DNA of 64,000 nucleotides, taken from positions 12,328 through 76,327 of the forward strand of contig JAISGI010000015.1 of the NCBI GenBank assembly GCA_031263095.1, read 5' to 3'. Below the pieces are notes generated by a model. The model was given only the letters and a program-made list of their open reading frames with translations, searched no databases and was not told where the DNA came from. This DNA comes from Rickettsiales bacterium (lineage in GTDB: Bacteria; Pseudomonadota; Alphaproteobacteria; Rs-D84; CACZYB01). Below, piece by piece: positions 6,075-58,163 of this stretch. The first letter of the stretch is position 1. The number at the start of each line of letters is the position of its first letter. The position numbers were made by a program, and so were the translations under genes.

Positions 6075-6128
6075 ACCTGTGGGAATGCCGGAAATAACTT
6101 GAAAAGTTATTCTGGCTTTCCACAGGCC
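6075..6128. repeat. REP-like palindromic element (CCTGTGG...CCACAGG family)
   Basis: acCTGTGGgaatgccggaaataacttgaaaagttattctggctttCCACAGG: a ~22-bp imperfect inverted repeat around a GAAAA loop. It is preceded by the T-rich stretch ttttattattataa. Confidence 0.6.
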
Positions 6129-6146
6129 TTAAACTCCTCCAGCTTC

Positions 6147-6569
6147 CTATTTAAGCTCCACCTTGTCGAAGTTTATTGGGTTCAAGACAAAAGGCGAGAA
6201 TCCCGAATCCGCTGTAACACCTGCGATGACCGCGCGTATGAACGGGAACAGATGCGAGGGGATGGTCTTGGTAAGCAGACGCTTCAAGGCCTCCTCTTCG
6301 GTTATATGCACCGCGGCCATGGAACCGTAGGCAAGCTCGATTACGAACAGCGGCTTGTCGGCAAGCGTGTTGGTAATCTTCAGGTTCATGACGACCTCGT
6401 AAAGCTCATCTCCCATTTTGGCTGTCTTGACCTCAAGGTTCATGTCGATTTTTGGCTGGCCCTCAAGCTTCTCGAAGAATATGCGCGGACTGGACGGCGC
6501 CTCGAACGAAAGGTCTTTGATATACTGGTTCAGGATTTCGAATTCCGGCTTCGGCTGGACGTTTTCCAT
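6147..6569 (-). CDS. secB: protein-export chaperone SecB
   Basis: 140 aa with typical SecB sequence (EFEILNQYIKDLSFE...LFVIELAYGSMAAV...FPFIRAVIAGVTADSGFSPFVLNPINF). Confidence 0.85.
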   Translation of the reverse strand: MENVQPKPEFEILNQYIKDLSFEAPSSPRIFFEKLEGQPKIDMNLEVKTAKMGDELYEVVMNLKITNTLADKPLFVIELAYGSMAAVHITEEEALKRLLTKTIPSHLFPFIRAVIAGVTADSGFSPFVLNPINFDKVELK

Positions 6570-6651
6570 TTATTGCTCCTTGTTTGGCTTGCTTTTCTCT
6601 CATTATAGGATATAATGGCCGCTACGCAACAAGTTTTTTAAGGAGTGGATT

Positions 6652-7296
6652 ATGAGTGCTATAGACGTATGCATGCTTGGGTTCTTCGGGTTCGTCTGCT
6701 ATTGCGCTTGGCGCACGTTCAAGGGGGACAAACCCGAGCCGCTCGCCGCGGCGGGCAAAACCGCGGCCGAACCCATAAAGCCGCTTATAAGCCTTGCGCC
6801 CGCAAAGCCGGTTGAGAAAGCGGAGCCGGTAAAGCAGGAGGACAGCCTTGAGATGAAAGTCCTCTCTCTTGCCTCCCGCGACAAGGGGTTCGAGCCGCAG
6901 GCGTTCATGGAGTCCGCCCGCCAGGCGTTCGATATTATACTGAAGTCGTTCGAGGAGGGGGATGTCGAGGCAATCCGCCCGCTGGTCTCGGCCAAGGTTG
7001 CCAAATCGCTTGAAAAGCAGATGGCCGCGCTTGCCGCCAAGAAACACAAACTCTCGACCGAAATCGTAAGGTATAAAAAGGTCTATATGGAGGACATCGC
7101 CATTTCGGACAAGTCCGCGCGCATAGTTGTGCATATAATAACCGAGCAGACAGCGCTTCTTACCGACGCCAAGGGCAAGATTATAGAGGGGGACGAGAAC
7201 AGCATACGCGAGGTCAAGGACGCCTGGGCGTTCGAACGCAACTTCTCCTCCCGCGGCGGCTGGGTGCTGGTGGAAATGCTAAAGGCGGATAAGTAG
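6652..7296 (+). CDS. Tim44-like domain membrane protein
   Basis: N-terminal transmembrane segment, a low-complexity linker and a C-terminal Tim44/NTF2-like region (ARQAFDIILKSFEEGDVEAIRPLVSAKVAKSLEKQ...WVLVEM). Confidence 0.6.
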   Translation: MSAIDVCMLGFFGFVCYCAWRTFKGDKPEPLAAAGKTAAEPIKPLISLAPAKPVEKAEPVKQEDSLEMKVLSLASRDKGFEPQAFMESARQAFDIILKSFEEGDVEAIRPLVSAKVAKSLEKQMAALAAKKHKLSTEIVRYKKVYMEDIAISDKSARIVVHIITEQTALLTDAKGKIIEGDENSIREVKDAWAFERNFSSRGGWVLVEMLKADK

Positions 7297-7302
7297 CCGA
7301 CG

Positions 7303-7554
7303 CTATTTGCTGTCTTTTGTGGATTTATAGAGCGCCATGACGCCGATGATAAGGTTTATTATCACGGATAAAGCTGCCGCCACTATGAAAATAAATCCCA
7401 TAAGCTCGCTCGCATTCTTGAACAAGGCCGCGCCTATAAGCCCAAGCGGCATCGCAATCAGCCAGCCGAACAGTACTTTCCAAGTGAATATATTACGGTT
7501 TTTCAGCTTGTTGTTTATGCCCCTAAGCAAAGCTTCAATCCTATCTTCGTTCAT
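7303..7554 (-). CDS. small hypothetical membrane protein (83 aa, two TM segments)
   Basis: ORF with two hydrophobic helices; no motif recognised. Confidence 0.35.
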   Translation of the reverse strand: MNEDRIEALLRGINNKLKNRNIFTWKVLFGWLIAMPLGLIGAALFKNASELMGFIFIVAAALSVIINLIIGVMALYKSTKDSK

Positions 7555-7684
7555 ATCTAGCCTCCTTTTTTATCCGTAATAATATCAAATTTTATTATTA
7601 TTGTCAATCCTCGCTCTCCACAGTCTATCAAATTCTTTCTTGATTCTTGAGGTTCCATAATATATCCTCCCTTGAGAGGAAAAC

Positions 7685-9643
7685 ATGGCTCAAAGTTCAT
7701 ACAGCGCGAAAGACATCGAGGTTTTGGAGGGGCTCGAGCCCGTCCGCATGCGCCCCGGCATGTACATCGGCGGCGTGGACGCGAACGCTCTCCACCATCT
7801 GGCAAGCGAGATTCTTGATAACGCTATGGACGAGGTCGGCGCCGGCTTCGCGCGCGAAATTTCTATGGAAATCTTGGAGGACGGCCGCGTCCGCATATCC
7901 GACGACGGCCGCGGCATTCCCGTGGACGACCATCCCAAGTTTCCGGGCAAATCCGCGCTCGAGGTGATACTCACAACGCTCCACTCCGGCGGCAAGTTCA
8001 GCGACAAGGTGTACCAGACCTCCGGCGGCCTGCACGGCGTCGGCTCCTCGGTCGTGAACGCGCTTTCTGAGGAAATGACGGTCGAGGTCTCCCGCGGCGG
8101 CAACATCTACCGCCAGAAATATTCCCGCGGCCTGCCGACTTCGAAACTCGAAATCGTCGGCAAATCCAAGAAGACCGGCACCACGGTCGAGTTCAAGCCC
8201 GACGCCACGATTTTTGGCGAGGGAAACGTGTTCAAACCGCTGCGGCTCTTTCGCATGGCGCGTTCCAAGGCGTTCCTTTTCAAGGGCGTGGTAATACACT
8301 GGAAGTCGCAGATTCCCGTGGATGGCGTGCCGGCTGAGGCTACGCTCAATTTTCCAAACGGCATCGCCGACTTCTTGGCCGAAACAATAGAAACGCGTCC
8401 TAAGGTGATAGACGAGATTTTCTATACCGAAACCCCGCTTGCCGAGGACAAGGGCAGGGTGGAGGTAGCTCTGTCGTGGATAGATACCACGCGCGAGGAG
8501 GGCGCGACCGGCGGGTTCATAAGCTCTTACGCCAATACGATTCCGACACCCGACGGCGGCACGCACGAGGCCGGGTTCAAGTCGGCCATCACGAAAAGCC
8601 TCAAATCTTTCGCCGACATGGTTGGCAATAAGAAATTCGCCCAGGTCATATCCGAGGATATTTTCGACGATGCCGCGGTGGTGCTCTCGCTCTTTTACAA
8701 GAACCCGCAGTTCCAGGGTCAGACCAAGGAGAAGTTCAGCTCTGCCGAGGCGACCCGCCTAATCGACACGGCGCTCAAGAACTATTTCGACTACTTTTTG
8801 ACCCAAAACCCGGCTCAATCTAATCTTTTGCTTGGTTATATAATCGAAAAGGCCGAGGCAAGGCTTAAACTTAAAAAGCTCAAGGAAACGATTCGCAAGT
8901 CGCCTACGAAAAAACTCCGCCTGCCGGGAAAATTGGCCGACTGCTCCAACCGCGACCGCACGGGAACCGAGCTTTTTTTGGTCGAGGGCGACTCCGCGGG
9001 TGGCAGCGCGAAACAGGCTCGCAGCCGCGCGACTCAGGCGATTCTCCCGCTGCGGGGAAAAATTCTCAACGTCGCCTCCGCCTCAAGCGACAAGCTCTCC
9101 GCGAACAAGGAGATTGGCGATATTACCGAGGCCTTGGGCGCGGGCGCCGGACGCGATTATAACGAGGACAAGCTCCGCTACGACAAGGTAATAATCATGA
9201 CCGACGCCGACGTCGACGGCGCGCATATAGCAAGCCTTTTGATGACGTTCTTCTTCGAGCAGATGCCAGGGCTCATCGCCGACGGCCACCTGTATCTGGC
9301 GCTTCCGCCGCTGTTCAAGGTCTCCGACGGCCGCACGTCGTACTACGCCATGGACGAGCAGGAAAAGGACGCTATAATCGCCAGGCATTTCAAAGGAAAA
9401 AAGGTCGAAATCTCCCGCTTCAAGGGCCTTGGCGAAATGATGCCGGGACAGCTCAAGGAAACGACAATGGATCCGAAAACGCGCCAGCTGCTGCGCGTGG
9501 AAATTCCTCCGCATACCGAGGAGGGGCGCGAGGATTTCGCCGCCACGCGCGAGCTTGTCGCCAACCTCATGGGCAAGAATGCCGAGTTCCGCTTTCGCTT
9601 CATACAGGAGGGGGCGAAGTTCGGGGTCGAGCTGGATATATAA
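7685..9643 (+). CDS. parE: type IIA topoisomerase B subunit, short form (topoisomerase IV subunit B ParE-like)
   Basis: 652 aa with the GHKL ATPase region (LEGLEPVRMRPGMYIGG...HHLASEILDNAMDE), a Toprim domain ([34 protein letters not shown]) and the DADVDG motif. It lacks the ~170-aa insertion present in the 818-aa GyrB at 13450. Confidence 0.8.
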   Translation: MAQSSYSAKDIEVLEGLEPVRMRPGMYIGGVDANALHHLASEILDNAMDEVGAGFAREISMEILEDGRVRISDDGRGIPVDDHPKFPGKSALEVILTTLHSGGKFSDKVYQTSGGLHGVGSSVVNALSEEMTVEVSRGGNIYRQKYSRGLPTSKLEIVGKSKKTGTTVEFKPDATIFGEGNVFKPLRLFRMARSKAFLFKGVVIHWKSQIPVDGVPAEATLNFPNGIADFLAETIETRPKVIDEIFYTETPLAEDKGRVEVALSWIDTTREEGATGGFISSYANTIPTPDGGTHEAGFKSAITKSLKSFADMVGNKKFAQVISEDIFDDAAVVLSLFYKNPQFQGQTKEKFSSAEATRLIDTALKNYFDYFLTQNPAQSNLLLGYIIEKAEARLKLKKLKETIRKSPTKKLRLPGKLADCSNRDRTGTELFLVEGDSAGGSAKQARSRATQAILPLRGKILNVASASSDKLSANKEIGDITEALGAGAGRDYNEDKLRYDKVIIMTDADVDGAHIASLLMTFFFEQMPGLIADGHLYLALPPLFKVSDGRTSYYAMDEQEKDAIIARHFKGKKVEISRFKGLGEMMPGQLKETTMDPKTRQLLRVEIPPHTEEGREDFAATRELVANLMGKNAEFRFRFIQEGAKFGVELDI

Positions 9644-9666
9644 CAAGCAAACAAAAGGAGCCTATA

Positions 9667-10110
9667 ATGCCCAAAACCGATGTCGGCGCCGGATGCGCAG
9701 TAGTGGTCTTCAACGAGAAGAAACAGTTTCTCATGCTCCACCGCCGCAAGGATGTCAAGCACGCACCCGACACATGGTGCCTTCCCGGCGGCTGGATAGA
9801 GAAGTTCGAGGAGCTGGAAATCGCCGCCGCGCGCGAAACGCTCGAGGAAACCGGAGTCCTTGTCCGCAATGTCAAAGTAATGGGCGTCCAGAACAATATA
9901 AGGCGCAACGAAGACCACCATACGATTACGGTGATTATGGCGGCGGTTATGAGGGATGGCAGTCCCGCACCCACGAACGCCGAACCGGACAAGGCCGACG
10001 CCGTGCGCTGGATAGATGATTGGAATAATATGCCCGCCCCGACATTCTCCGCCTACTCCGCCGCCGTCTCCCGCGAAACGCTCGAAAAATATCTGTCTGA
10101 AAATCTATAA
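9667..10110 (+). CDS. NUDIX hydrolase
   Basis: Carries a Nudix box (GGWIEKFEELEIAAARETLEETGV). Confidence 0.75.
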   Translation: MPKTDVGAGCAVVVFNEKKQFLMLHRRKDVKHAPDTWCLPGGWIEKFEELEIAAARETLEETGVLVRNVKVMGVQNNIRRNEDHHTITVIMAAVMRDGSPAPTNAEPDKADAVRWIDDWNNMPAPTFSAYSAAVSRETLEKYLSENL

Positions 10111-10222
10111 TCTTTTTGTTATTATTGCCCCTGTGGAATCAGGAGATAACTTGAAAAGTTATCCTTGATTCCATAGGGCACTTGGGTTATAGTCATAAAT
10201 GTCAAACCAAAGGACAAGACCG

Positions 10223-10800
10223 ATGACAAGGAACTATAAACGTACGGGGGGGGGCAAAAGGCTAAATACCTAGCGTTTACGCTTCTCCTACTATCAGCCA
10301 ACAACTCTCAATCAGCCAATTATTATACCTGCACAGCTTGCGCCGTGCCCGGTGTCTGCCAAGCCGGAGCAAGCACAGATTTTAATAAGTACAACGCTCC
10401 GCTCACACTTGCCGAGGCTACCGCCGCCATAGGAACACCCGCAACGAACAGGTGGACGCTTGTGGACGAGCAGCCAACCGCATACCAAGTAAAATGCGGC
10501 ACTCTTCCAACCGGAATATACCGTCTTGACGCATACAACTCGGTGGAATCCTACAGCTCGCAGATAGCCGTGCTCGATAAGCCGACGGATTATACCCTTT
10601 GGCTGAACGATAGTCCTACTCCTGGATTGAATGTAAGGATTTATATGGGGACCAATTCTTGCGGCGCTTTCAATGGCTGTAACGGTGAGAACTGCAAATT
10701 TATGATACTTGCGTCCACGAATTCCAGATATACGCCCGGCATAACGCTTGACGACATGAAGCATGCCGCAAGGAATGTCGCCATATATCGGCTTCAATAG
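10223..10800 (+). CDS. phase-variable small secreted Cys-motif protein, family copy A; G9 tract at 10246-10254 leaves it out of frame (ON at 10 G)
   Basis: Leader GTCAAACCAAAGGACAAGACCG-ATG (Shine-Dalgarno plus ATG at 10223). ATG ACA AGG AAC TAT AAA CGT ACG-G9 then hits TAG at 10271 with 9 G. With 10 G it reads MTRNYKRTGGGQKAKYLAFTLLLLSANNSQSANYYTCTACAVPGVCQAGASTDFNKYNAPLTLAEATAAIGTPATNRW...AIYRLQ (the frame of ORF 10345-10800). Confidence 0.8.
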
Positions 10801-10807
10801 GAAAAGG

Positions 10808-10874
10808 GCGCAGGGAAGATTGGCGGCACGGGCTTTGGTTAGACGCAAATACCTCCCGCCAATCTTCCTTGCGC
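10808..10874 (+). ncRNA. conserved structured 3'UTR element of the family (19-bp stem, ~30-nt loop carrying an anti-leader sequence)
   Basis: Stem GCGCAGGGAAGATTGGCGG pairs with CCGCCAATCTTCCTTGCGC, the only mismatch being a G·U pair in the sense transcript. The loop contains GCTTTGGTTAGACGC, complementary to the GTCTAACCAAAG leader. The same element follows copies B and K and, on the minus strand, copy D. Confidence 0.55.
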
Positions 10875-10891
10875 CCGAAACCTCAGGAATC

Positions 10892-12499: not shown

Positions 12500-12602
12500 T
12501 TGCGTCTCCTTTTTGACCGGAGAATTTTAACATAGTATTTTATTGTTGTAAAGCCCACCTGTTTCTGGTATAATGGTATAGTCAAACCAAAGGAGAAGAC
12601 CG

Positions 12603-13200
12603 ATGACAAGGAACTATAAACGTACGGGGGGGGGCAAATAAGTATATAGCTACTGCGCTTCTTCTGGTTTCAGCCAACAACTCTCAATCTGCCAATTATT
12701 ACACCTGTACCGCCTGCACCGTACCTGGAGCATGCCAACCCGGGGCGACAACGGACTGCAGCCGGTACAACGATGTATATGCGACGGGCAATCAAGGCAA
12801 CGCGGACATGGTGGCTGCATGCATAGGTTCGCCCGACAAAAGCAGGTGGCAGCTTGTCGCCAAATACTCGCTGGGCGATACTGCGGGCAATGTTTCCTCC
12901 GGCAGTCTGACGCCCGGAATCTACCGGTTCGACGGCTATTATTCGGACGACAAATACGGCTATGGCATAGTAATATTCGACCACGAGGTCAAGTATGCGT
13001 TCAAAGATTTCATCTCCAACAGCGAATCCTGCTGCAACCGCATAGTAGTCAATGTGAACAACGAAGATGCGCTGACGCATAACGCACCTGGTACGCAAAC
13101 GGCGGACGTAGGAAATTATCAGGTCAAGGCCGTGCCGAACATAACCCTTTCGGATATGATTCGTACTGGCAAAACAGGCGCAATATACAAACTGAACTAG
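12603..13200 (+). CDS. phase-variable family copy B; G9 at 12626-12634 (ON at 8 G)
   Basis: Same leader (GTCAAACCAAAGGAGAAGACCG-ATG). At 9 G translation stops (..GGC AAA TAA). At 8 G it reads MTRNYKRTGGANKYIATALLLVSANNSQSANYYTCTACTVPGACQPGATTDCSRYNDVYATGNQGNADMVAACIGSPDKSRWQLVAK...GAIYKLN, joining ORF 12808-13200. The promoter has an extended -10 (TGGTATAAT) at about 12569. Confidence 0.8.
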
Positions 13201-13208
13201 AGGGCAGG

Positions 13209-13276
13209 GTGCAGGGAAGATTGGCGGCACGGGCTTTGGTTAGACGCTAAGCGCCTCCCGCCAATCTTTCTTGCGC
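13209..13276 (+). ncRNA. family 3'UTR hairpin element (copy B)
   Basis: Stem GTGCAGGGAAGATTGGCGG pairs with CCGCCAATCTTTCTTGCGC. All three mismatches are G·U or U·G in the sense RNA. The loop is CACGGGCTTTGGTTAGACGCTAAGCGCCTC. Confidence 0.55.
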
Positions 13277-13419
13277 CCAACTCTAAATAGATAAATATTT
13301 CAACCTTTTTTATTGTTTTTATGCCTGTGGTATGCAAAGGCAACTCGCCAGAGTTGTCCTGCATTCCACAGGCGTTTAGGCATGCTTTTTTCCTTGCTTT
13401 TGGCGCTCCCTTTTGCTAG

Positions 13420-15879
<2,460 letters not shown>

Positions 15880-20773: not shown

Positions 20774-20792
20774 CCGACCACTCGCAAGAATG

Positions 20793-20822
20793 AAAAAAAA
20801 GCCGGTTTCGACCGGCTTTTTT
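20793..20822 (+). terminator. Rho-independent terminator
   Basis: aaaaaaaaGCCGGTttcgACCGGCtttttt. Confidence 0.7.
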
Positions 20823-20894
20823 GTAATAATCCCCGCTGCACTAGAAATATTACAATAACATTATTTGATTATTTTTTTTGTTGTTATTATTGTC

Positions 20895-20945
20895 CCTGTG
20901 GGCAAGCGGAGATAACTCGGGAGAGTTATCCTGCTTGTCCACAGG
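20895..20945. repeat. REP-like palindrome, preceded by the CTAGAAATATTACAAT motif (20843-20858) and a T-rich run
   Basis: CCTGTGGgcaagcggagataactcgggagagttatcctgcttgtCCACAGG, followed directly by the copy-C promoter (TTGACA, 17-nt spacer, TATTAT). Confidence 0.6.
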
Positions 20946-21006
20946 CTTGACATATATCCTTATTCATGCTATTATATATAGGTCTAACCAAAGGAGAAAG
21001 ACGGCA

Positions 21007-21547
21007 ATGACATATATGAACAAAAAGCGTACGGGGGGGGGCAAATAAGTATTTAGTTATTGCGCTTCTCCTGATTTCGACTAACTCTCAATCTTCAAAT
21101 TACTATACCTGTACTGCCTGCGCCATACCCGGAGCATGTCAGGCCGGGGCAAACGCAGACTTTGACAAGTACAACACTCCACTTACGCTTGCCGAAGCTA
21201 CCGCCGCAATCGGCACGCCCTCAAAATCGAGATGGAGCCTTATAGATGGTGGCCATTTCGTCAACAAGCGCGGTACTCTCTCGCCCGGAGCTTACATGAT
21301 AAGCGGCAATGCCAGCATGTCCGCCGGAGGCTGCACGTCCCAGGTGGCGGTGTTCGACAGGGAAGTTGGCTATAACCTGCTTGCCGACGGCATAACGATA
21401 GACACGAACAACCCCGTGTTCAGCGGCACTACCTGGGGAGTGTATAGTCCAGCGGACTGCTCGGCAGACACGCTTCAGACTCCTGGCTGGAGCAAGGAGG
21501 ACATAACCGCCCAGTCTTTCGGCAGCTATATATACAAACTCCAATAA
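21007..21547 (+). CDS. phase-variable family copy C; G9 at 21033-21041 (ON at 8 G)
   Basis: Leader GTCTAACCAAAGGAGAAAGACGGCA-ATG. At 9 G it stops (AAA TAA). At 8 G it reads MTYMNKKRTGGANKYLVIALLLISTNSQSSNYYTCTACAIPGACQAGANADFDKYNTPLTLAEATAAIGTPSKSRWSLIDGG...GSYIYKLQ. Confidence 0.8.
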
Positions 21548-21565: not shown

Positions 21566-21612
21566 CCTGTGGAAAGTCGGCGACAACTTGTCAAGTTGTC
21601 CCGGCTTTCTAT
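21566..21612. repeat. REP-like palindrome with a degenerate right end
   Basis: CCTGTGGaaagtcggcgacaacttgtcaagttgtcccggctttCTATGG. Confidence 0.5.
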
Positions 21613-21642
21613 GGTCTCCTGAACCAAATATCTTATACCCGG

Positions 21643-21752
21643 GCGCAAGAAAGATTGGCGGAGGGCAAAGATTCCGTCTCCGGAATCCAAAAGCGTCTAA
21701 CCAAAGGGCAGAGAGAATCTGCCTATGCCGAACCCGCCAATCTCACTTGCGC
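21643..21752 (-). ncRNA. family 3'UTR hairpin element belonging to copy D, with an extended loop
   Basis: On the minus strand the stem GCGCAAGTGAGATTGGCGG pairs with CCGCCAATCTTTCTTGCGC. The loop carries CCCTTTGGTTAGACGC (anti-leader) plus a small internal hairpin (GGATTCCggagacGGAATC). Confidence 0.5.
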
Positions 21753-21772
21753 CAGGAAAGGAGCCGGCCAAG

Positions 21773-22358: not shown

Positions 22359-22498
22359 CGGTCTTCTCCTTTGGTTTGACCTTTATATTATATCATACTT
22401 TACCCATATAATCAAGGACAATGATAACAAAAAATATTATTGTAATATTTCTAGCGCACCGGGAAATGCTGCAAAAAACCCGGCTGAAAACTGGCTTT

Positions 22499-23299: not shown

Positions 23300-23895
23300 A
23301 TGACAAGGAACTATAAACGTACGGGGGGGGGCAAAAGGCTAAATACCTAGCATTCGCGCTTCTCTTACTATCTGCCAATAACTCTCAATCAGCAAACTAC
23401 TACACCTGCTCGGCATGTGCTGTGCCTGAACTATGCAAAGCAGGCGCAGGCACGGACTTTGACAAGTACAACGCCCCACTCACACTTGCCGAGGCTACCG
23501 CCGCCATAGGAACGCCCGCAAAATCCCGTTGGACGCTTGTCGATTCATTCGAGGAATATGGAAGCAAGCCTGGCACTCTGTCGCCGGGACTATATAGAGT
23601 CGACGCCTCGGGCATCACAAGCGTCGGCTGCCTAAGAATATCGCAAACCGTGGCCATGTCCAAGGATACCGGATACATTATGAGGAGCAGCTCGCTCCCC
23701 GCCGAGGGGAATTGCGCAGGCTGCGCCGGAGTTGTATTCGACAGCAACAATGCAACATACTCGAGCGTTTCATACACGGTAGTGGCTCAAAATAGTACGG
23801 CCTACTCGCAAAGCTACACTCCTGGTATAACCCAAGATGACTTCGCGCCAGCCGATTGCTCCACTCACAAAACGGCGATTTATAGATTAAATTAA
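23300..23895 (+). CDS. phase-variable family copy E; G9 at 23323-23331 (ON at 10 G)
   Basis: Leader GTCAAACCAAAGGAGAAGACCG-ATG. At 9 G it stops at TAG. At 10 G it reads MTRNYKRTGGGQKAKYLAFALLLLSANNSQSANYYTCSACAVPELCKAGAGTDFDKYNAPLTLAEATAAIGTPAKSRWTLVD...TAIYRLN. The promoter has TGTAGTATAAT. Confidence 0.8.
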
Positions 23896-23917
23896 AATAT
23901 TTTTTGTTATTATTATA

Positions 23918-23967
23918 CCTGTGGTAAGCGGGAGATAACTTGAAAAGTTATCCTCGCTTTCCACAGG
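23918..23967. repeat. REP-like palindrome
   Basis: CCTGTGGtaagcgggagataacttgaaaagttatcctcgctttCCACAGG. Confidence 0.6.
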
Positions 23968-26477: not shown

Positions 26478-26527
26478 CCTGTGGTAAGCGGGAGATAACT
26501 TGAAAAGTTATCCTCGCTTTCCACAGG
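26478..26527. repeat. REP-like palindrome
   Basis: CCTGTGGtaagcgggagataacttgaaaagttatcctcgctttCCACAGG, identical in core to 23918 and 41501. Confidence 0.6.
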
Positions 26528-29902: not shown

Positions 29903-29954
29903 CCTGTGGAATCCGGAAATTATTTGCTGCGCAAATTATTCTGGATTCCACAGG
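29903..29954. repeat. REP-like palindrome (variant core)
   Basis: CCTGTGGaatccggaaattatttgctgcgcaaattattctggattCCACAGG. The centre differs from other copies but is still self-complementary. Confidence 0.6.
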
Positions 29955-30000
29955 GCACATGTGATATAATCATAAAGTCTAACCAAAGGAGAAGACGACA

Positions 30001-30562: not shown

Positions 30563-30608
30563 CCTGTGGAAAGGTGTGCAATCTAAAAGTTGTGCACGGT
30601 TCCACAGG
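30563..30608. repeat. REP-like palindrome (variant core)
   Basis: CCTGTGGaaaggtgtgcaatctaaaagttgtgcacggttCCACAGG. Confidence 0.6.
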
Positions 30609-32056: not shown

Positions 32057-32103
32057 CATTTCCCGTCGTGCTAGAAATATTACATATATTTTCTGTTATT
32101 ATC

Positions 32104-32154
32104 CCTGTGGAATCCGGAAATTATTTGCGAAGCAAATTATTCTGGATTCACAGG
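32104..32154. repeat. REP-like palindrome, preceded by CTAGAAATATTACAT (32068-32082)
   Basis: CCTGTGGaatccggaaattatttgcgaagcaaattattctggattCACAGG. Confidence 0.6.
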
Positions 32155-32201
32155 ACACATGTGATATAATCATAAAGTCTAACCAAAGGAGAAAGACGAC
32201 A

Positions 32202-32828: not shown

Positions 32829-32879
32829 CCTGTGGGATTAGTGTGCAACTCTAACGGAGTTGTGCACGGATTCCACAGG
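32829..32879. repeat. REP-like palindrome (variant core)
   Basis: CCTGTGGgattagtgtgcaactctaacggagttgtgcacggattCCACAGG. Confidence 0.6.
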
Positions 32880-36917: not shown

Positions 36918-37101
36918 TTCTTGCTCCTGTTTGTGGATACTTTAGCGATTTTGCATGGGAAAGCAAGAAATTTCTATCCAACACCAGTTCGTATTTTATT
37001 GTTATTGACAAAAGCCTTTCGCCTGAATATAATTCTTTTCAGCGGTTTAAGAGAGCCGCAAAATCAACCGACTTCAGCAATATAATCTTAGGAAAAATCA
37101 A

Positions 37102-38459: not shown

Positions 38460-39020
38460 TTAATTCAGCTTGTACAAATACACCATGCCGGAAGTCCTGT
38501 CCATATCGGAAAGTGTGAGGCCGGGTGTGGCCATCCTTCCGCCGTTGGGGTTATTTGCGTACATTTGTGCTCCGTAAACCAAAACATTCTCTGCAGATCC
38601 CATATAAGGCGATTTGAAGAATACAAGGTCGGTGCAAGCATTGTTCAAACACCCTCCGGCATTCAACAGCGAATATATACGCACAGAGGCAGGCTGGTTC
38701 AATACCACTATGTTGGACGAGTAACTATTCCCGGCTACGTAGGCGTCTATGCGATAGACTCCAGGTGCGTAAAGGTTATCCGCTGAAGCGCTTATGCCAT
38801 TGCCGGGCGAAGAAGTTTGGGCGACGACCTGCCACCTCGATTTTTCCGGCGTTCCTATTGCTGCTGTCGCTTCTTCAAGCGTCAATACAGCATTGTACCT
38901 GCAATCTTGGGTGGCGCCGGATTGGCAGGCACCGGGCACGGCGCACGCCGAACAGGAATAATAGTTCGCCGCACCGGCTGGCATTGCCATAAGCATCACC
39001 ATTGCTAGTAGTTTTTTCAT
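38460..39020 (-). CDS. family copy I with no homopolymer tract: constitutive-type member with a standard signal peptide
   Basis: MKKLLAMVMLMAMPAGA-ANYYSCSACAVPGACQSGATQDCRYNAVLTLEEATAAIGTPEKSRWQVV...PGVYRIDAY...PGLTLSDMDRTSGMVYLYKLN. Shine-Dalgarno site AAGGAGG-ACTGA-ATG. It has all the family motifs but a different, uninterrupted leader. Confidence 0.85.
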   Translation of the reverse strand: MKKLLAMVMLMAMPAGAANYYSCSACAVPGACQSGATQDCRYNAVLTLEEATAAIGTPEKSRWQVVAQTSSPGNGISASADNLYAPGVYRIDAYVAGNSYSSNIVVLNQPASVRIYSLLNAGGCLNNACTDLVFFKSPYMGSAENVLVYGAQMYANNPNGGRMATPGLTLSDMDRTSGMVYLYKLN

Positions 39021-40014: not shown

Positions 40015-40152
40015 ATCCGTATTGGATTTATCAGGAAACGTGGGGGGGGGTAAATCGCTGATTTTGCACAGATTGTCCGTATTCTATGGCGCAAGCCTCT
40101 GTTTGGGACGAAAATGCATATAAGATTGACGAGAGCCTTGCGGATTTCCATT

Positions 40153-40857
40153 TTACATATCCGCCCGGGTCTTCACCACCTTGTCAATCAAGCCAAAGCC
40201 TTGGGCTTCCTCGGCGCTCATGAAGTTGTCCCGCTCGACCGCTGCGGCGACCTCGGCAATCGGCCGCCCGGTGTGGAATGCATAAAGCGAATTGAGCTTC
40301 TCCCTGGTCTTCAAAATCTCCCGCGCGTGAATCTCGATGTCCGTGGCCTGACCTTGGTACCCGCCAAGCGGCTGGTGTATCATTATGCGCGAGTTGGTAA
40401 GCGCGAATCGCTTGCCCTTCGCACCGCCGGCGAGCAGAAACGAGCCCATCGAGCACGCCTGGCCAAGACAAAGCGTGGCCACATCCGGCTTGACGTACTG
40501 CATGGTGTCGTATATTGCAAGACCCGATGTCACTACACCGCCTGGCGAGTTTATGTACATGAATATGTCCTTGTCCGGGTTCTCCGACTCGAGAAACACA
40601 AGCTGCGCCACGACGAGCGAGGCCGAGGCATCGTTTATCTCACCGTTGATGAAGATTATACGCTCCTTGAGTAGGCGCGAGAATATGTCGAAACTCCGCT
40701 CGCCGCGGGCCGTCTGCTCGATTACATAGGGTATGAAATTCATTGAATCATCCATTTGAGGCTCCTTTTTTAAGAAGAGTCTAACATACTTTTTAGCCGT
40801 TGTAAAGCCTGTGGAAAGCCAAACGGTTATCCTCGCTTTCCACAGGAAAAATAACAA
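40153..40857 (-). CDS. clpP: ATP-dependent Clp protease proteolytic subunit
   Basis: Ser-His-Asp triad context ([14 protein letters not shown]...MIHQP). Confidence 0.9.
40808..40846. repeat. REP-like palindrome plus GGACTAGAATTATTACAAT motif (40861-40879, minus orientation)
   Basis: CCTGTGGaaagccaaacggttatcctcgctttCCACAGG. The motif's TAG is the stop codon of copy J. Confidence 0.55.
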
Positions 40858-41500: not shown

Positions 41501-41550
41501 CCTGTGGTAAGCGGGAGATAACTTGAAAAGTTATCCTCGCTTTCCACAGG
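41501..41550. repeat. REP-like palindrome
   Basis: CCTGTGGtaagcgggagataacttgaaaagttatcctcgctttCCACAGG. Confidence 0.6.
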
Positions 41551-46416: not shown

Positions 46417-46424
46417 AGGGCAGG

Positions 46425-46492
46425 GCGCAGGGAAGATTGGCGGCACGGACTTTGGTTAGACGCTAAGCACCTCCCGCCAATCTTCTCTGCGC
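46425..46492 (+). ncRNA. family 3'UTR hairpin element (copy K)
   Basis: Stem GCGCAGGGAAGATTGGCGG pairs with CCGCCAATCTTCTCTGCGC, the single mismatch being G·U. The loop is CACGGACTTTGGTTAGACGCTAAGCACCTC. Confidence 0.55.
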
Positions 46493-46516
46493 CCGAGCCA
46501 AAAAATAAATATCCCT

Positions 46517-47918: not shown

Positions 47919-47919
47919 T

Positions 47920-50895: not shown

Positions 50896-50935
50896 TTTTG
50901 TTTTCTCCCTGTAAGAAGTTTTCCTTATGTCTCTT

Positions 50936-50985
50936 GAAACACAATATATAGTGTTTTTCGCCGATTCACAACCAATATTTTGTGT
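50936..50985. promoter_or_regulatory. probable NrdR boxes upstream of nrdD
   Basis: Near-palindrome ACACAATATATAGTGT, with a weaker second box (ACAACCAATATTTTGTGT) about 30 bp away, in the nrdD 5' region. Confidence 0.4.
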
Positions 50986-51315
50986 TTTTTAACAATTTTT
51001 TTGCTTGACTGGAAAAAAGTTGGGGAAAATAGGGAGGTTAGAAAAAAAAGAAAAATATAAACTTTTTAAGGGACAAAAACGGCTGTGCGAAATGTCGATT
51101 TTGCGTCCAAAAATCTGGTCGTTTTTTGGCAAATTAGAGGTGTTTTGGCAAAGTTTTTGGTATAGCGCGATTCGTGGCCGATTCGTTCCGATTCTCGCGA
51201 CTTTATAGGGCTTCTGAAACACTTCCCGGCACACTAGAATTATTACAATCTTTTGTTGTTGCCATACCTGTGAAATCATGCTATTATATATGGGTCTAAC
51301 CAAAGGAGAAAGACG

Positions 51316-51883: not shown

Positions 51884-52611
51884 CGCTTGACGCCCCATAC
51901 GCCTTCAAGCCGGGAGAGACCCGAGGATACAGACACTCTCCCGGCCGCCTCGGTCGGGTTTCCACTGTCAATGCCGTAAAGCTGGCCGGAGAGGTTCCCG
52001 ACGGTTTCTCCAGATGAAAACGTTATACCGGATATATTCTCCCCGGTTCTGATGACGGCTACCGGACCGTTATAGGAGATTGCACCGCCTTCGGACGTTA
52101 TATTCGCGAACGAGAATTTATAGAAGTCCGCGAATTCAAGGTCGAGCTTTTGCACAGAAAAGTCAAGCTTGGCCACGCCGGATACTATCATGGCCACGTC
52201 CGACCCGTTAGAGGCGACTGCCACGGTCGAACCGGTGAAGATTCCGCCGGACGGAGCCGTTGTCGCCCACCTAGCCTCGTCTTCGGCAATCTCGATTTTA
52301 TACGCGGCCCAAGGCATTGTTTCATAGTGTGGGCTCGGAGCGAACTCTCCGACAGAGGCCCAAAGGCCAAGCGATACATGCTCAAGCTCGAACTTTGTCC
52401 AATCTCCCCGCACGCCGCCAAGATAGTCGTTGTTTTCCGCCTGCCTGCCAGAGGAAGATTCTCCGCCGGGATTTCCCGCCCCCGGTTGGTTTTCCAAGGG
52501 CGGAGGAACGCTCCCTTCTTTCTGACTATTGGAAGTGAATTCCGGTGCGCCGGCCCTATAACATCCCGCAAGCATTACTAGAACAAGCAGACGTAATTCC
52601 CGCAAATGCAT
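51880..52611 (-). CDS. lipoprotein with a TbpB/fHbp-like C-terminal barrel-type motif
   Basis: Signal-peptide lipobox (LVMLAGC-Y) and a C-terminus ...LSRLEGVWGVKR, related to the ends of 17495..18526 and 18778..19890. Confidence 0.5.
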   Translation of the reverse strand: MHLRELRLLVLVMLAGCYRAGAPEFTSNSQKEGSVPPPLENQPGAGNPGGESSSGRQAENNDYLGGVRGDWTKFELEHVSLGLWASVGEFAPSPHYETMPWAAYKIEIAEDEARWATTAPSGGIFTGSTVAVASNGSDVAMIVSGVAKLDFSVQKLDLEFADFYKFSFANITSEGGAISYNGPVAVIRTGENISGITFSSGETVGNLSGQLYGIDSGNPTEAAGRVSVSSGLSRLEGVWGVKR

Positions 52612-52709
52612 ATATTTTCCCCTCTACTGGGAGGATAATCCTGCGAGATGAAAATGCAAGCATTTTTTGAATAAATTCCAAATGTTTTTTATTTTTGCAG
52701 CATGATATA

Positions 52710-53984: not shown

Positions 53985-54026
53985 GGGGCAAGCTTATACC
54001 GCCCGCCCCGCCATTGCAACTTTATT

Positions 54027-54561
54027 TCAGTTCAGACGATATATGGCGCCATACATTCCCGCGGCCTGGTCGGACAGATTGGGAGTGTGCATATTGAAGT
54101 CATACATGAGATAAGTCTTGCCGTCGGTGGCGTCGTTCGTTATCCTGGCAGTAGGGTTGACTCCTGCCGTAGGGTCGGAATCTCCCACAAAATATTCGGA
54201 CGCGCGGTCGACTATCACTATGCCAGACGACCTTGTGTTGTTCGCAACCGCGTCTAGCCTATAGATTCCCGCCTGTACTTGGCCGGTTTTCTGTTCGGCT
54301 CCATTAGCTCTGTCTATAAGAGTCCACGCAGACTCGGCTGGGGAACCGACGCACCGCGCGACCTCGCCCGGATAGCCCCAATTGGTAAGCAGCCTGTTAT
54401 AGGTACAGTCGGATACGGCCCCGGCTTGGCACGCCCCCGGTACAGCACAAGCTGTACAAGTATAATAATTTGATGATTGAGAGTTGTTGGTAGATAATAG
54501 GAGAAGCGCTAAAGCTAAATACTTATTTGCCCCCCCCCGTACGTTTATAGTTCCTTGTCAT
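54027..54561 (-). CDS. phase-variable family copy M; C9 at 54530-54538 (ON at 8)
   Basis: The reverse strand reads GTCTAACCAAAGGAGAAGACAG-ATG ACA AGG AAC TAT AAA CGT ACG-G9. At 8 it gives MTRNYKRTGGANKYLALALLLLSTNNSQSSNYYTCTACAVPGACQAGAVSDCTYNRLLTNWGYPGEVARCVGSPAESAWTLID...GAIYRLN. The promoter is TTGACA, 17-nt spacer, TATTAT. Confidence 0.8.
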
Positions 54562-54619
54562 CTGTCTTCTCCTTTGGTTAGACAATCCGTATAATACTCT
54601 ATTTTATTATTATTGTCAA

Positions 54620-54669
54620 CCTGTGGAAAGCCAGAATAACTCGGGAGAGTTATTCTGGCTTTCCACAGG
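54620..54669. repeat. REP-like palindrome
   Basis: CCTGTGGaaagccagaataactcgggagagttattctggctttCCACAGG. Confidence 0.6.
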
Positions 54670-54739
54670 CGGCCTAACTAAACAATTCTCCTTGATTTCA
54701 TAATCGCCGCCTCTTATACTTCCGCTCAAGGAGACCCAG

Positions 54740-55393
54740 ATGAAGAAAATTTCCGCCACGCGTATCAAGACCATAAAGAGCGCGCCCAAGGCTATCAAAA
54801 GGAACCTTGCCTTGGCGCTTCCGAACCTGCTGACCTACGCTCGAATCCTGGTGATTCCAATAGTGTGCTACATGCTGTATATGAATAGCGAGATGTATTC
54901 CCGCTACGTTGCCTGCCTGCTGTTCTTTTTGGCAAGCATTACGGACTATTTCGACGGCTATCTTTCGAGGAAGATGAAGATAACCTCGGAAATAGGCCGC
55001 TTCCTCGACCCGATTGCGGACAAGCTTCTGGTCGGCGCGGTGCTTATTTCCATGGCCCAGACCAAGTTCGTGACCGGGTTCGAGACCATGCTCGCCGCCA
55101 TAATCATCAGCCGCGAGATTTTCATCTCCGGCCTGCGCGAGTACTTGGGCGGCAAAAGCGTCAAGGTGCCGGTTTCGCGCCTTGCCAAATGGAAGACCGC
55201 GGCGCAGCTTTTCGCCATAGGCTTCCTGATATTCGGCCGGAATTACAGGTACCGGTTCTATAACTCCTGGTGGGACGGACTTTTGTTCGATATATATGTT
55301 GCGGGAGTTGTGTTGCTGCTTGTTGCGTGCGCGCTGACCATAATCACGGGTTGGAAATATATGCGCGCCGCGTTCAAGTATATGAAGGAATAG
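54740..55393 (+). CDS. pgsA: CDP-diacylglycerol--glycerol-3-phosphate 3-phosphatidyltransferase
   Basis: CDP-alcohol phosphatidyltransferase motif (DGYLSRKMKITSEIGRFLDPIADK). Confidence 0.85.
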   Translation: MKKISATRIKTIKSAPKAIKRNLALALPNLLTYARILVIPIVCYMLYMNSEMYSRYVACLLFFLASITDYFDGYLSRKMKITSEIGRFLDPIADKLLVGAVLISMAQTKFVTGFETMLAAIIISREIFISGLREYLGGKSVKVPVSRLAKWKTAAQLFAIGFLIFGRNYRYRFYNSWWDGLLFDIYVAGVVLLLVACALTIITGWKYMRAAFKYMKE

Positions 55394-55394
55394 C

Positions 55395-55988
55395 GTGATA
55401 TACAAGCTCACCGGCATAGTCGACGAGATTTCCGACAATCACTTGGTCTTGGACGTGGGCGGAGTGGGCTACGGCATATTCGCGCCGATTGGTACGCTTG
55501 CGCACCTTGCGCCCAAATCTCCCGCGAACCTGTATATAGAGATGGTGGTGAAAGAGGACGGCGTATCATTATACGGTTTTTCCGCCGCGGCCGAGAAAGC
55601 CTTTTTCAACCTACTGACCACAGTCCAGGGCGTAGGGCCCAAGGCCGCGATGGCGATATTGTCCGCCCTACCGCTCGAGCAGGCGGTATCGGCGATACTT
55701 GCTGGCGATTCGGCATCTCTTGCAAAGGCTAACGGGATAGGGGCCAAGACCGCCGTGCGCATAGCCTCGGAACTGAAGGACAAGGTAGCCAAGCTTGGCC
55801 TCGACCTGGCCGTTGCCGACGTTTCTAAAACAATCACAAACTCGGACGCTGGGGATGCGATTTCCGCGCTTACTAACCTAGGCTATTCGAGGACGGAGGC
55901 CGCCGCAGCCGTGGCCAAGACGCTCGAGGCAGAGCAGGGCCTTACCGTCGGCGATATAATCCGCAAGGCCCTGGCCAGGTTTTCCTAA
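55395..55988 (+). CDS. ruvA: Holliday junction DNA helicase RuvA
   Basis: GTG start. N-terminal OB domain, two HhH motifs and a C-terminal RuvB-interaction domain. Confidence 0.85.
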   Translation: MIYKLTGIVDEISDNHLVLDVGGVGYGIFAPIGTLAHLAPKSPANLYIEMVVKEDGVSLYGFSAAAEKAFFNLLTTVQGVGPKAAMAILSALPLEQAVSAILAGDSASLAKANGIGAKTAVRIASELKDKVAKLGLDLAVADVSKTITNSDAGDAISALTNLGYSRTEAAAAVAKTLEAEQGLTVGDIIRKALARFS

Positions 55989-55991
55989 GGT

Positions 55992-56586
55992 TTAGTCAAG
56001 CTTGTATATTGCGACAGTAGGGTCTATCGTGTATATCATGTCCGAGACAGTTATACCGGGGACATATGATACAGTGCTTGGCTTTTGGGTACTACTATTC
56101 GCATTGATCGTGTGGTACCTGCCACCACAGTTGTTGAAGCGTTGCACTGTTGTCCAGTCTTCGGACGAGTTATCTATGCATACATGTGCTCCGCTGTCTA
56201 CGAATTTACCGCTCCAGGTGCCATAGTCGGTGTCTTGGGCAAGCACTACAATCCGTGATGTCCAGCTTGCCTCGGTATGCCACAAATCTACGCGATAGAT
56301 TCCGGGCGAAAGCATGCCAAGCTTTTGCGGCCCCCGAGGACCCTCTTCTTTTTTAACAAGCGTCCATCTGGATTTAGCGGGCGTACCTATACAGCGGACA
56401 GCTTCTTCCAAAGACAAAGTTTTGTCATAAGTGCAATCCTTGGTCGCACCAACTTGACACGCACCCGGCACTGCACAGGTCGAGCATGTGTAATAATTTG
56501 CTGAATAGGATTGGTTAGCTGATATTAGGAGAAGCGCAACAGCTATATACTTATTTGCCCCCCCCCATACGTATATTATTCCTCAT
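55992..56586 (-). CDS. phase-variable family copy N; C9 at 56558-56566 (ON at 8)
   Basis: The reverse strand reads GTCAAACAAAAGGAGAAGACCGATA-ATG AGG AAT AAT ATA CGT ATG-G9. At 8 it gives MRNNIRMGGANKYIAVALLLISANQSYSANYYTCSTCAVPGACQVGATKDCTYDKTLSLEEAVRCIGTPAKSRWTLV...VAIYKLD. The promoter is TTGACG, 17-nt spacer, TATAGT. Confidence 0.8.
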
Positions 56587-56648
56587 TATCGGTCTTCTCC
56601 TTTTGTTTGACTTAAATACTATACCGCAAATCCCTAAATCCGTCAATC

Positions 56649-57410
56649 TTAAATCTTAAATTTCATGCCAAGGTAAAAGGCATTCGCCTCGACATCGACT
56701 ATGGCCGTGGTCGCGATGGTGTTTATGCCTGTGTCGATAAGCATGCCGCCGCTCAGCTCGCCATAGCTTATGTGGCGCCAGCCGAACTCGACCGCAATAC
56801 GCTCGCTCACGTCCGCATTCGCGCCAAGCATGACTTGCCACCCGAACCCAGCTTCTCTGATGCTTGCGCCCGAAAGGATGGTCGGCCCGCCGCGGCCCCA
56901 AAGGTCGAACTCGGCCGACAGCAGGGTAATGCCAAACCCTATTCCGACATAAGGGGTTATGACGCTGGTATTGCCAAAGTCGTAATAGCCGTTCAACATA
57001 AGGGCCGATGCTTTGAAATTGTCCGTCTCTCTAATCGCCTCGACTTTGACGCCCCCGGCGATAATAAGCTCGCCCTCGGTTCGTAATTCTCCGCTTTTGC
57101 TTCCATAGGCAAGAGTAAGGCCGCCGGGCTTTGCCGTCGCGTCAAGCGCGAACGCCCCGCCAAGGCTTACATCCACATCCATGTTGCGGTAGGCCAAAAG
57201 CCGCGCGGCTATGTACCCGCCGTCTTTGCCCATAGAGGTCATAGGGACGGGTGCCGGCTCGACAACAACCGCCTCGGGTGGCGGCATTGCGATAGAGGCA
57301 GGTTTCGGCGTTCCGAATTTGGCCTGGAATTCCGCCTCGCGCTCCTCAAGACTCTGCGCCCGCACGCCAAAGGCAGACAATGTAGCTATTATGAATGCAA
57401 ATTTTCTCAT
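56649..57410 (-). CDS. outer-membrane beta-barrel porin-family protein (Omp25/RopB-like)
   Basis: Signal peptide (MRKFAFIIATLSAFGVRAQS), alternating beta-strand pattern and a C-terminal ...FYLGMKFKI. Confidence 0.6.
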   Translation of the reverse strand: MRKFAFIIATLSAFGVRAQSLEEREAEFQAKFGTPKPASIAMPPPEAVVVEPAPVPMTSMGKDGGYIAARLLAYRNMDVDVSLGGAFALDATAKPGGLTLAYGSKSGELRTEGELIIAGGVKVEAIRETDNFKASALMLNGYYDFGNTSVITPYVGIGFGITLLSAEFDLWGRGGPTILSGASIREAGFGWQVMLGANADVSERIAVEFGWRHISYGELSGGMLIDTGINTIATTAIVDVEANAFYLGMKFKI

Positions 57411-57535
57411 TTCTTACTCCTTGCTCAAAGGATACAACCATAAATATATAACTCAATAATTTTTTTCTGTTATCCTTGATTCCGCTGATAAAGTATGCTA
57501 TCCTATAAAAGTCTAATTGAAAGGAGAAGACGAAA

Positions 57536-58119
57536 ATGATTATTATGAACAAAAAGCGCACGGGGGGGGGCGGCGGCGGAATGCTAAGTATAGAGCAACT
57601 GCGCGTCTCTTACTATCAGCTAACAACTCTCAATCATCAAATTATTATACCTGTACAAACTGCGCTGTACCCGGCGCTTGCCAAGCTGGCGCCACGGCGG
57701 ACTGTACTTATGGCCAATTCCTATCCCTTGAGGGAGCGGCGCGTTGTTTAGGAACTCCAGCGAAAACCAGATGGACGGAAGTCTATAGGTGTACAAACAA
57801 CTGCTCTTCTTCTGCAGGAGGTTTTCCAAAAGGAGTCTACAGGTTCGATCTCAAGAACTCGAAAACCGTATATTCACGCGTCTTTATATCGTTATATGAT
57901 ACGAAGCTATACAGCTTCCAGCGCGCCTGCAACGGGGTTGAAGACCGAGCGTGCGTGGGAATGCTGTGCGGCCCATCACAGACGTTCGACGAATGCAACC
58001 GATGGGCAGGAATGAACGAAAATTCAACAGCGCCGCAGATATTCACTCCGGGCATAACGGCCGATGACATAACGAACCCAAGTGCCGGGTCAATTGTGGT
58101 GTATAGGCTCGAGGGATAG
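57536..58119 (+). CDS. phase-variable family copy O; G9 at 57562-57570 followed by (CGG)3 (ON at 10 G)
   Basis: Leader GTCTAATTGAAAGGAGAAGACGAAA-ATG ATT ATT ATG AAC AAA AAG CGC ACG-G9-CGGCGGCGG. At 9 G it yields a 71-aa out-of-frame product (ORF 57536-57751). At 10 G it reads MIIMNKKRTGGGRRRNAKYRATARLLLSANNSQSSNYYTCTNCAVPGACQAGATADCTYGQFLSLEGAARCLGTPAKTRWTEV...IVVYRLEG. Confidence 0.8.
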
Positions 58120-58132
58120 AGGAACTCGGGCC

Positions 58133-58163
58133 CCTGTGGAAATCTGCCCGGGATTTCCACAGG
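58133..58163. repeat. short REP-like palindrome
   Basis: CCTGTGGaaatctgcccgggatttCCACAGG. Confidence 0.55.

Follow-up and report, generated by a model that had tools for sequence, protein, structure and literature searches.

What are the short palindromes that open with CCTGTGG, close with CCACAGG and recur between the genes of an uncultured bacterium, and on which strand do they act? The question is raised by a 64-kb stretch of chromosomal DNA (the window, i.e., the whole stretch analysed) from a Gram-negative alphaproteobacterium with about 54% G+C, where many of these hairpins border the cassettes of a secreted-protein gene family containing poly-G tracts. The reading preferred here, with moderate confidence, is that they are lineage-specific palindromic repeats of the REP (repetitive extragenic palindrome) type, more precisely of the 'double-foot' GTGG...CCAC kind. 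REPs are a known kind of element, the present family is new, and its membership among the repeats served by REP-associated tyrosine transposases (RAYT) is unproven. It is probable that the family is mobilised or homogenised as a single strand. On this reading, promoters and 3' stem-loops bordering the poly-G gene family have in part been recruited from it.

Number, folding and strand asymmetry of the hairpins

The heptamers CCTGTGG and CCACAGG occur 32 times in the window vs. 4.4 ± 1.9 expected (ca. 7-fold excess), and their paired pattern is never obtained in shuffles. The window contains 15 hairpins, in agreement with the original prediction of at least 14 dispersed ones. One more is found outside it, in another contig of the same organism (L029), i.e., the family is not unique to the window; three half copies complete the set. 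Both exact heptamers are present in 13 complete hairpins (12 in the window and that of L029), while the 3' foot is degenerate in three copies (10130, 21566 and 32104). Hairpin length ranges from 31 to 52 nt, the foot is CCTGTGG...CCACAGG, and every copy is intergenic. A covariance model built from the copies found no further ones, and Rfam has no family for the hairpin (the sole match in the window is a tRNA-Ser). The copies and the promoter-like boxes next to them are as follows.

6076-6126, +: hairpin of 51 nt between the stop of secB (6147, −) and the start of plsC (6052, −); −29.4 kcal/mol, + strand better than its complement by 7.5 kcal/mol
10130-10178, +: hairpin of 49 nt, 3' foot CCATAGG; right arm with the −35 box TTGATT (10165-10170), then a 17-nt spacer and the −10 box TATAGT (10188-10193), for family gene 10246
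13324-13372, +: hairpin of 49 nt between family gene 12603-13200 and gyrB
20895-20945, +: hairpin of 51 nt; promoter TTGACA-17-TATTAT (20947-20975) from 1 nt past the foot, canonical terminator 20790-20827 upstream
21566-21614, +: hairpin of 49 nt, degenerate 3' foot, 18 nt past the stop of family gene 21007-21547
23918-23967, +: hairpin of 50 nt, one of three identical, between convergent genes
26478-26527, +: hairpin of 50 nt with the sequence of 23918, flanked by a family gene (+) and dksA (−)
29903-29954, +: hairpin of 52 nt; −35 box TGGATT (29942-29947) in the right arm, −10 box TATAAT (29965-29970), for family gene 30024
30563-30608, +: hairpin of 46 nt; a family gene stops 11 nt before it, and a convergent XerD-like gene has its stop 6 nt away
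32104-32154, +: hairpin of 51 nt, 3' foot TTCACAGG; −35 box TGGATT (32143-32148) in the right arm, −10 box TATAAT (32165-32170)
32829-32879, +: hairpin of 51 nt separating a family gene (+) from a NUDIX gene (−); the + strand has 5 G·U pairs
40808-40846, −: hairpin of 39 nt, central deletion; the only copy with T-rich leader and better-folding strand on the minus strand
40806-40778, −: promoter-like site TTTACA-17-TAGACT abutting hairpin 40808, upstream of clpP
41501-41550, +: hairpin of 50 nt with the sequence of 23918; at the foot begins the promoter TTGACA-17-TATAGT (41500-41472, −), which serves family gene 41440-40879
54620-54669, +: hairpin with a perfect stem of 23 bp in a divergent region; promoter TTGACA-17-TATTAT (54619-54591, −) begins at the foot
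58133-58163, +: hairpin of 31 nt, central deletion, 13 nt past the stop of family gene 57536-58119
L029, 807-842: hairpin of 36 nt, outside the window
7590-7623, +: half copy, T-rich leader followed by GTCAA and the right-arm remnant TCCTCGCTCTCCACAG; the reverse complement reads TTGACA-17-TATTAT, for the small gene 7554-7303
5055-5077, +: remnant (half copy 5071), T-rich leader joined straight to CCACAGG, downstream of the canonical terminator 5017-5044
60552-60573, +: half copy, one arm AGTTATCCCGGCTTTCCACAGG, upstream of family gene 60477-59910

Half copies had been announced at about 5068, 7610, 13325 and 60560. Three of them are retained (5071, 7608-7623 and 60552-60573), whereas that at 13325 turned out to be a full copy of 49 nt. 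The half copies resemble one-arm deletions, and the short copies of 31, 36 and 39 nt resemble central deletions; both are the usual fate of long palindromes.

Every copy folds strongly (−20 to −42 kcal/mol, z from −5.6 to −11). The pairs 1-7 of the foot are almost invariant, while each of the stem pairs 10-13 is formed by 4-6 different standard pair types. The mean complementarity of the two arms within a copy is 0.78 vs. a mean arm identity of 0.60 between copies. Next to a constant foot, the interior thus changes in a compensated manner; the variable but self-complementary centres, and the selection for folding proposed from them, are supported. It must be noticed that base pairs were counted from each copy's own fold, MAFFT and model-fitted alignments being out of register for pair counting.

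The two strands are not equivalent. A transition in a palindrome gives a G·T pair on one strand and an A·C mismatch on the other, so that neutral decay predicts a 1:1 ratio between strands. In fact 25 G·U pairs are found on the strand having the T-rich tract 5' of the hairpin and only 3 on its complement. This bias is opposite in direction to the local compositional skew and thus points to selection for the folding of one single strand. With RNA parameters, the strand with the 5' T-rich tract folds better in 14/14 distinct hairpins (ddG −0.9 to −12.3); with DNA parameters, the + strand folds better than the − strand in 13/14, the exception being 40808. Fifteen of the 16 copies are on the + strand, and 13 of 17 are co-oriented with the gene just upstream. 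A rule by chromosome strand and a rule by gene conflict at three copies only (6076 and 41501 follow the chromosome strand, 40808 the gene), thus the relevant single strand may be RNA or DNA.

Unit of spread and gene borders

Copies 23918, 26478 and 41501 match at 50/50 bp, but not beyond the foot: several positions distinguish their T-rich leaders, and the right flanks show no relation. It is the palindrome itself, ca. 50 bp, that is shown to be the copied or homogenised unit. Empty and filled sites are seen among paralogous promoters, where ATTGTC is followed directly by CTTGATT for gene 22327, and by the hairpin and then CTTGACA for gene 21033; there is no duplication in this ATTGTC/CTTGA pair. 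A comparison of orthologous spacers, which had been suggested as a check, gave a difference as well, since the secB-plsC spacer of a syntenic relative (contig L031) is 44 nt long and has no hairpin.

GyrB identity reaches only 76-79% in the closest relatives, which have no copies. The hairpin is absent from the four comparison contigs (L030 to L033, ca. 69 kb in all), and no copies were found in GTDB representative genomes, JGI metagenomes and IMG/VR, where all matches are unrelated. As judged from these searches, the repeat family is lineage-specific. In detail, the genome-collection scan with the pattern CCTGTGGNAAGC...GCTTNCCACAGG gave chance matches only (MAGs, i.e., metagenome-assembled genomes, of Acidobacteriota, and a Lacticaseibacillus), two IMG/VR scans gave nothing, and the metagenome scan with the same pattern picked up nothing but a GC-rich hairpin lying in the orfA of an IS3-family element. 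The latter, present in soil and freshwater metagenomes (L005-L027, e.g., L025 3570-3980), is a CCTGTGG...CCACAGG hairpin of 47 nt preceded by TTTTGTTGGT, an arrangement resembling the T-rich tract plus foot of the window copies. The resemblance is probably a coincidence, because the search pattern forced the foot.

An independent assembly of the same sample (Logan SRR14710921, contig L034) is 99.99% identical to positions 1-10158 of the window and ends within the loop of hairpin 10130: palindromes break assemblies. The exact-protein look-up for SecB returned only that same sequence from the same sample and is uninformative on polymorphism; those for PGI, Rho, DksA, P0001 and P0003 returned no contigs.

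The copies lie between convergent (7), tandem (9) or divergent (3) genes, the last being one full hairpin (54620) and two half copies. Thirteen are located 11-123 nt, for the most part 11-47 nt, past the stop codon of a co-oriented gene. The window contains 15 paralogous secreted-protein genes of ca. 190 aa each; hairpins stand upstream of six of these cassettes (and a half copy upstream of a seventh) and directly after eight, while six cassettes in the window, like both in contig L030, have no hairpin at all. Other sites are the secB-plsC spacer and two divergent promoter regions. Copies away from family genes, another point of the original prediction, are thus illustrated by hairpin 6076 between secB and plsC.

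The hairpins had also been described as fused to a module made of a T-rich tract and the motif TAGAAATATTACAAT. A T-rich leader, consensus TTTTnTTATTATTGTC, precedes 13 of 17 copies. The motif TAGAAATATTACAAT, like the 'family promoter' of the first description, belongs to the upstream region of the cassettes and is without a hairpin at two of its six sites. The module is for the most part the family's own upstream region and not a part of the hairpin. The six sites exist, in both orientations, though the coordinates first given for them were a few bases off.

23892-23917, +: T-rich leader (example), diverging among copies with identical hairpins
20842-20856, +: TAGAAATATTACAAT motif within the conserved upstream block of six family cassettes
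29874, 32072 and 51235 (+), 22439 and 40867 (−): other sites of the TAGAAATATTACAAT motif

A longer conserved block, (A)TTTCCCGGTGCG-CTAGAAATATTACAAT, extends the motif by ca. 15 nt upstream (20827-20856, 32057-32086, 51220-51249 and, on the minus strand, 22439-22470). With its inverted ends ATTTC...GAAAT, this block may be where a regulator of the family promoters binds.

Several predicted promoters share sequence with the hairpins. For genes 10246, 30024 and 32228, the −35 box (TTGATT or TGGATT) is in the right arm and the foot lies within the 17- or 16-nt spacer before TATAGT or TATAAT. A TTGACA or TTTACA box begins within 0-1 nt of the foot at 20895, 41501, 54620 and 40808. At 41501, 54620 and the half copy 7590, reading the T-rich leader as its reverse complement gives the whole promoter of the leftward gene. 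Many copies are shown in this manner to be built into gene borders: three family promoters use the hairpin and four promoter-like sites touch it, besides the 13 copies past a stop codon. Moreover, the alignment of the family upstream regions shows that the right arm is homologous to hairpin-less promoters, and a string of 15 nt (GTTATCCTTGATTCC) is identical in the right arm of 10130 and in the hairpin-less promoter of gene 57562. Two origins both fit: either the hairpin comes from an inverted duplication of a promoter, or the hairpin-less promoters are one-arm remnants. The rho promoter (36994-37035) has the same T-rich tract followed directly by TTGACA-17-TATAAT, without a hairpin; T-rich UP-like tracts are thus apparently a general promoter feature in this organism.

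REP-type repeats and the other readings

REPs are hairpins of 21-65 nt with GT[AG]G at the foot, the 'double-foot' ones (subclass 2.4) having in addition a 3' C[TC]AC, and a G/C-rich basal stem is part of the search rule (PMC6006769). Binding by the nuclease is reported to be limited to the folded REP strand, the complementary one being left unbound; cleavage takes place at CT, or at CC for a GTGG guide (PMC8266576). REPs lie mostly between tandem and convergent genes and contain frequent G·T pairs, and the REP tag is unpaired (PMC3733652). The present hairpins fall within this size range and are dispersed in many intergenic, species-specific copies. GTGG is at the 5' foot in 16/16 copies, inside CCTGTGG, and the complementary CCAC is at the 3' end in 13/16 ('double-foot' type); the CCT directly before GTGG provides the CT/CC beside the guide. 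The fold asymmetry (14/14) and the G·U counts (25 vs. 3) would correspond to a single active strand, i.e., to the strand-specific recognition known for the RAYT (TnpA_REP) and the REP/REPIN elements, with which bulges, G·T pairs and a preference for tandem and convergent spacers are also shared. The REP likeness first proposed has thus held for the strand-specific hairpins, the GTGG/CCAC foot, the intergenic location, the restriction to one lineage and the discrete unit of 50 bp with presence/absence differences.

On this reading, the invariant foot CCT-GTGG/CCAC-AGG would be the part read by a protein which, by analogy with REPs, would be a single-strand HUH/Y1 nuclease (RAYT) binding the folded strand and cutting at CT or CC beside the GT[AG]G guide. 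New copies would land in AT-rich intergenic DNA, and long ones would decay through central or one-arm deletions. At the 13 positions past a stop codon, the transcribed hairpin may act as a 3' stem-loop protecting or insulating the message, and not as a canonical terminator.

Several observations weigh against it. The GTGG is paired with CCAC in every predicted fold, with three more paired bases outside (CCT/AGG). The next four stem bases are A/T-rich (AAAG, TAAG, AATC, etc.) where a G/C-rich basal stem would be expected. The conserved T-rich leader before the hairpin is without counterpart in described REPs, and neither REP doublets nor clusters like BIMEs (bacterial interspersed mosaic elements) are seen here. 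The search for a RAYT or IS200-like transposase, which had been recommended, was negative: no Y1/RAYT, IS200 or other transposase gene is present among the open reading frames of the window (Pfam/NCBIfam) and the called genes of L029 and L030, ca. 85 kb in all. The density of copies is uneven (15 hairpins in the 64-kb window vs. none in the 17 kb of L030), and the identity of 23918, 26478 and 41501 could stem from gene conversion and not from transposition. Finally, the skew at third codon positions (GC3 skew), from which alone the replication direction was guessed, weakly suggests that the folding strand is the leading-strand template, whereas elements of the IS200/IS605 type favour the lagging-strand template.

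The hairpins could instead be mainly RNA elements, i.e., 3' stem-loops which block exonucleases, stop read-through or are cut by RNase III, and which insulate the phase-variable cassettes, the sequence family resulting from duplication of cassettes with their ends. This is judged unlikely, though the location of 13/17 copies downstream of a co-oriented gene, mostly 11-47 nt past its stop, and the G·U pairs on the sense strand agree with it. Each family gene ends in this hairpin, in a GC-rich hairpin or in a canonical terminator, and 40808, the sole copy to follow a family gene of the minus strand, has its better fold on that strand. However, a T-run is absent after every hairpin, in both directions, and not one of them is among the terminator-like sites called, while the organism uses canonical A-tract/hairpin/T-tract terminators, two of them just upstream of copies 20895 (full) and 5071 (half). 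Copies 6076 and 41501 belong to minus-strand transcription units and yet have the + strand asymmetry. As 54620 lies, like two half copies, between divergent genes, no transcript ends there. Stability alone also leaves unexplained the invariant 7-bp foot beside a freely varying stem and the identity stopping exactly at the palindrome. Of the terminator-insulator function initially envisaged, the canonical intrinsic terminator is thus discarded, while a role as 3' RNA hairpin or insulator is possible.

The homology of the right arm with hairpin-less family promoters (15/15 match, conserved −35/−10 spacing) speaks for another explanation, namely that the palindromes are promoter-derived cis-regulatory structures. 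They would arise by inverted duplication of the T-rich/−35 region and modulate the promoter via a cruciform or a bound protein, the other copies being leftovers of lost cassettes. The likeness of the T-rich leader to the UP-like tract of ordinary promoters, e.g., rho, points the same way, as do the four best promoter matches in the scanned regions, which touch the hairpin foot. It is nevertheless improbable: nine copies have no outward-facing promoter (e.g., 23918, 26478, 30563 and 32829 between convergent genes), copies also occur away from family genes at secB/plsC, the variable length (31-52 nt) and centre speak against a fixed operator, and a strand-specific G·U pattern is unexpected for a double-stranded binding site. 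In a mixed version, speculative and likewise improbable, the hairpins arose by palindromisation of the phase-variable family promoter or were captured by it, and spread in one chromosomal orientation with outward −35 boxes. A selfish single-strand element would then seed promoters and set the borders of the all-OFF G9 family (see below), mobilised by an enzyme other than a recognisable RAYT. If true, this would imply a different mobilising enzyme, in an endosymbiont-like uncultured alphaproteobacterium as host. Lastly, it is highly improbable that the hairpins are attC-like or Xer-type recombination sites shuffling family cassettes. They do bracket several cassettes, a tyrosine recombinase gene is 6 nt from hairpin 30563, and fixed termini, variable centres, bulged bases and strand asymmetry are found as in attC. 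But this recombinase scores 130 bits vs. an integron-integrase cut-off of 265 bits and best matches housekeeping XerD/XerC, the termini are CCTGTGG/CCACAGG and not RYYYAAC/GTTRRRY cores, and the cassettes, which lie dispersed among essential genes, have promoters of their own and in many cases no hairpin.

Beyond the REP-type repeats, three known systems deserve comparison. Integron attC sites share with the hairpins the imperfect palindrome, conserved 7-bp ends, a variable centre, extrahelical bases, strand selectivity and the location after an open reading frame; they differ by their cores, and here there is neither IntI nor an array, and the cassettes have their own promoters. The ends of IS200/IS605 elements and their miniature derivatives have a subterminal hairpin, a 5' guide tetranucleotide and a single-strand, orientation-biased insertion by a short target without target duplication. 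Their two ends are unlike (LE/RE) and their target of 4-5 nt is fixed, whereas the present element is a single symmetric hairpin with a left flank whose last four bases vary. The Correia repeat enclosed elements (CREE) of Neisseria measure 100-155 bp and consist of a core between 26-bp terminal repeats, with an IHF site and a duplication of TA. They resemble the present family as small palindromic repeats with promoters at either end, beside phase-variable surface genes, able to form RNA hairpins when transcribed (PMC2649163); by contrast, the whole element here is one hairpin of 31-52 nt, without duplication.

Other identities were rejected. A miniature inverted-repeat transposable element (MITE), one of the initial suggestions, is not compatible with the lack of terminal repeats around a separate core and of a target-site duplication, the flanks of every copy being free of direct duplications. 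Nor is there support for the hairpins as the vehicle which disseminated the family cassettes, as had been imagined: those upstream of minus-strand cassettes are not flipped with them, identity among recent copies stops at the palindrome, and the eight hairpin-less cassettes mentioned above (six in the window, two in L030) lack them. The canonical intrinsic terminator was rejected since there is no T-run downstream of any hairpin, the T-rich tract lying 5'; canonical terminators are present elsewhere in the same DNA and in relatives. Readings of the foot or centre by eye as DnaA-box, IHF or CRP-like sites were dropped because spacing and centre vary. A hairpin of a diversity-generating retroelement was dismissed, as the window encodes no reverse transcriptase and self-BLAST gave no template-repeat/variable-repeat pair.

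REP-type repeats are known mainly from Proteobacteria with cultured representatives. A clean and small family in a MAG whose nearest relatives have no copies is a good case for the birth of such repeats (promoter palindromisation or invasion), and also for the manner in which repeats turn into promoters and gene-border elements.

The poly-G gene family and its second hairpin

Probably of greater biological interest in this window is the unusual poly-G contingency gene family that the hairpins delimit. Its signal peptide ends with ...LLLSANNSQS, the mature protein starts with NYYTCTAC and the C-terminus is TPGIT...AIYKLN. Among 5.8 billion proteins, the poly-G family is confined to this MAG. 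Every one of the 15 genes of the window is out of frame and carries, in the signal-peptide region, a run of exactly nine G (genes 10246, 12626, 21033, 22327, 23323, 25910, 30024, 32228, 41406, 45841, 51339, 54530, 56558, 57562 and 60443); the frame is restored by G8 in nine genes and by G10 in six. The two family genes of L030 (9906 and 3281) also have G9 and are out of frame, i.e., none of 17 paralogues has a tract length other than 9. This uniformity suggests either a uniform resting OFF state or expression via transcriptional or translational slippage. Two other members (window 38460-39020, −, and L029 275-793) lack a poly-G tract; with their ordinary signal peptide (MKKLLAMV...), they would be paralogues that can be read constitutively.

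In a relative whose GyrB is 77% identical (contig L032, ca. 9837, −, and ca. 21568, +), G9 tracts are located inside promoter spacers: TTGACA-aaagac-G9-TAGAAT is one example, and another, TTGATA...G9-TAAAAT, precedes an Opacity-like porin gene. The window has a similar G9 site near the 3' end of clpP (40042-40050). Poly-G switching thus seems to be a trait of the clade. The other genes of the window with Pfam matches include dnaG, parE, gyrB, pgi, secB, a Tim44-like gene, lptD/F/G, surA, clpP, rho, serS, nrdD, dksA and ruvA.

A second hairpin family follows other family genes (10806-10876, 13207-13278 and 46423-46496, +; 21641-21755, −) and flips with gene orientation. It has a GC-rich stem of 21 bp (GGGCGCAGGGAAGATTGGCGG / CCCGCCAATCTTCCTTGCGCCC; −50 to −63 kcal/mol), and its loop CUUUGGUUAGAC is antisense to the 5' untranslated region and ribosome-binding region of the family (GUCUAACCAAAGG). 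This second hairpin could be an antisense regulator, borne by the 3' untranslated region, of the other family mRNAs.

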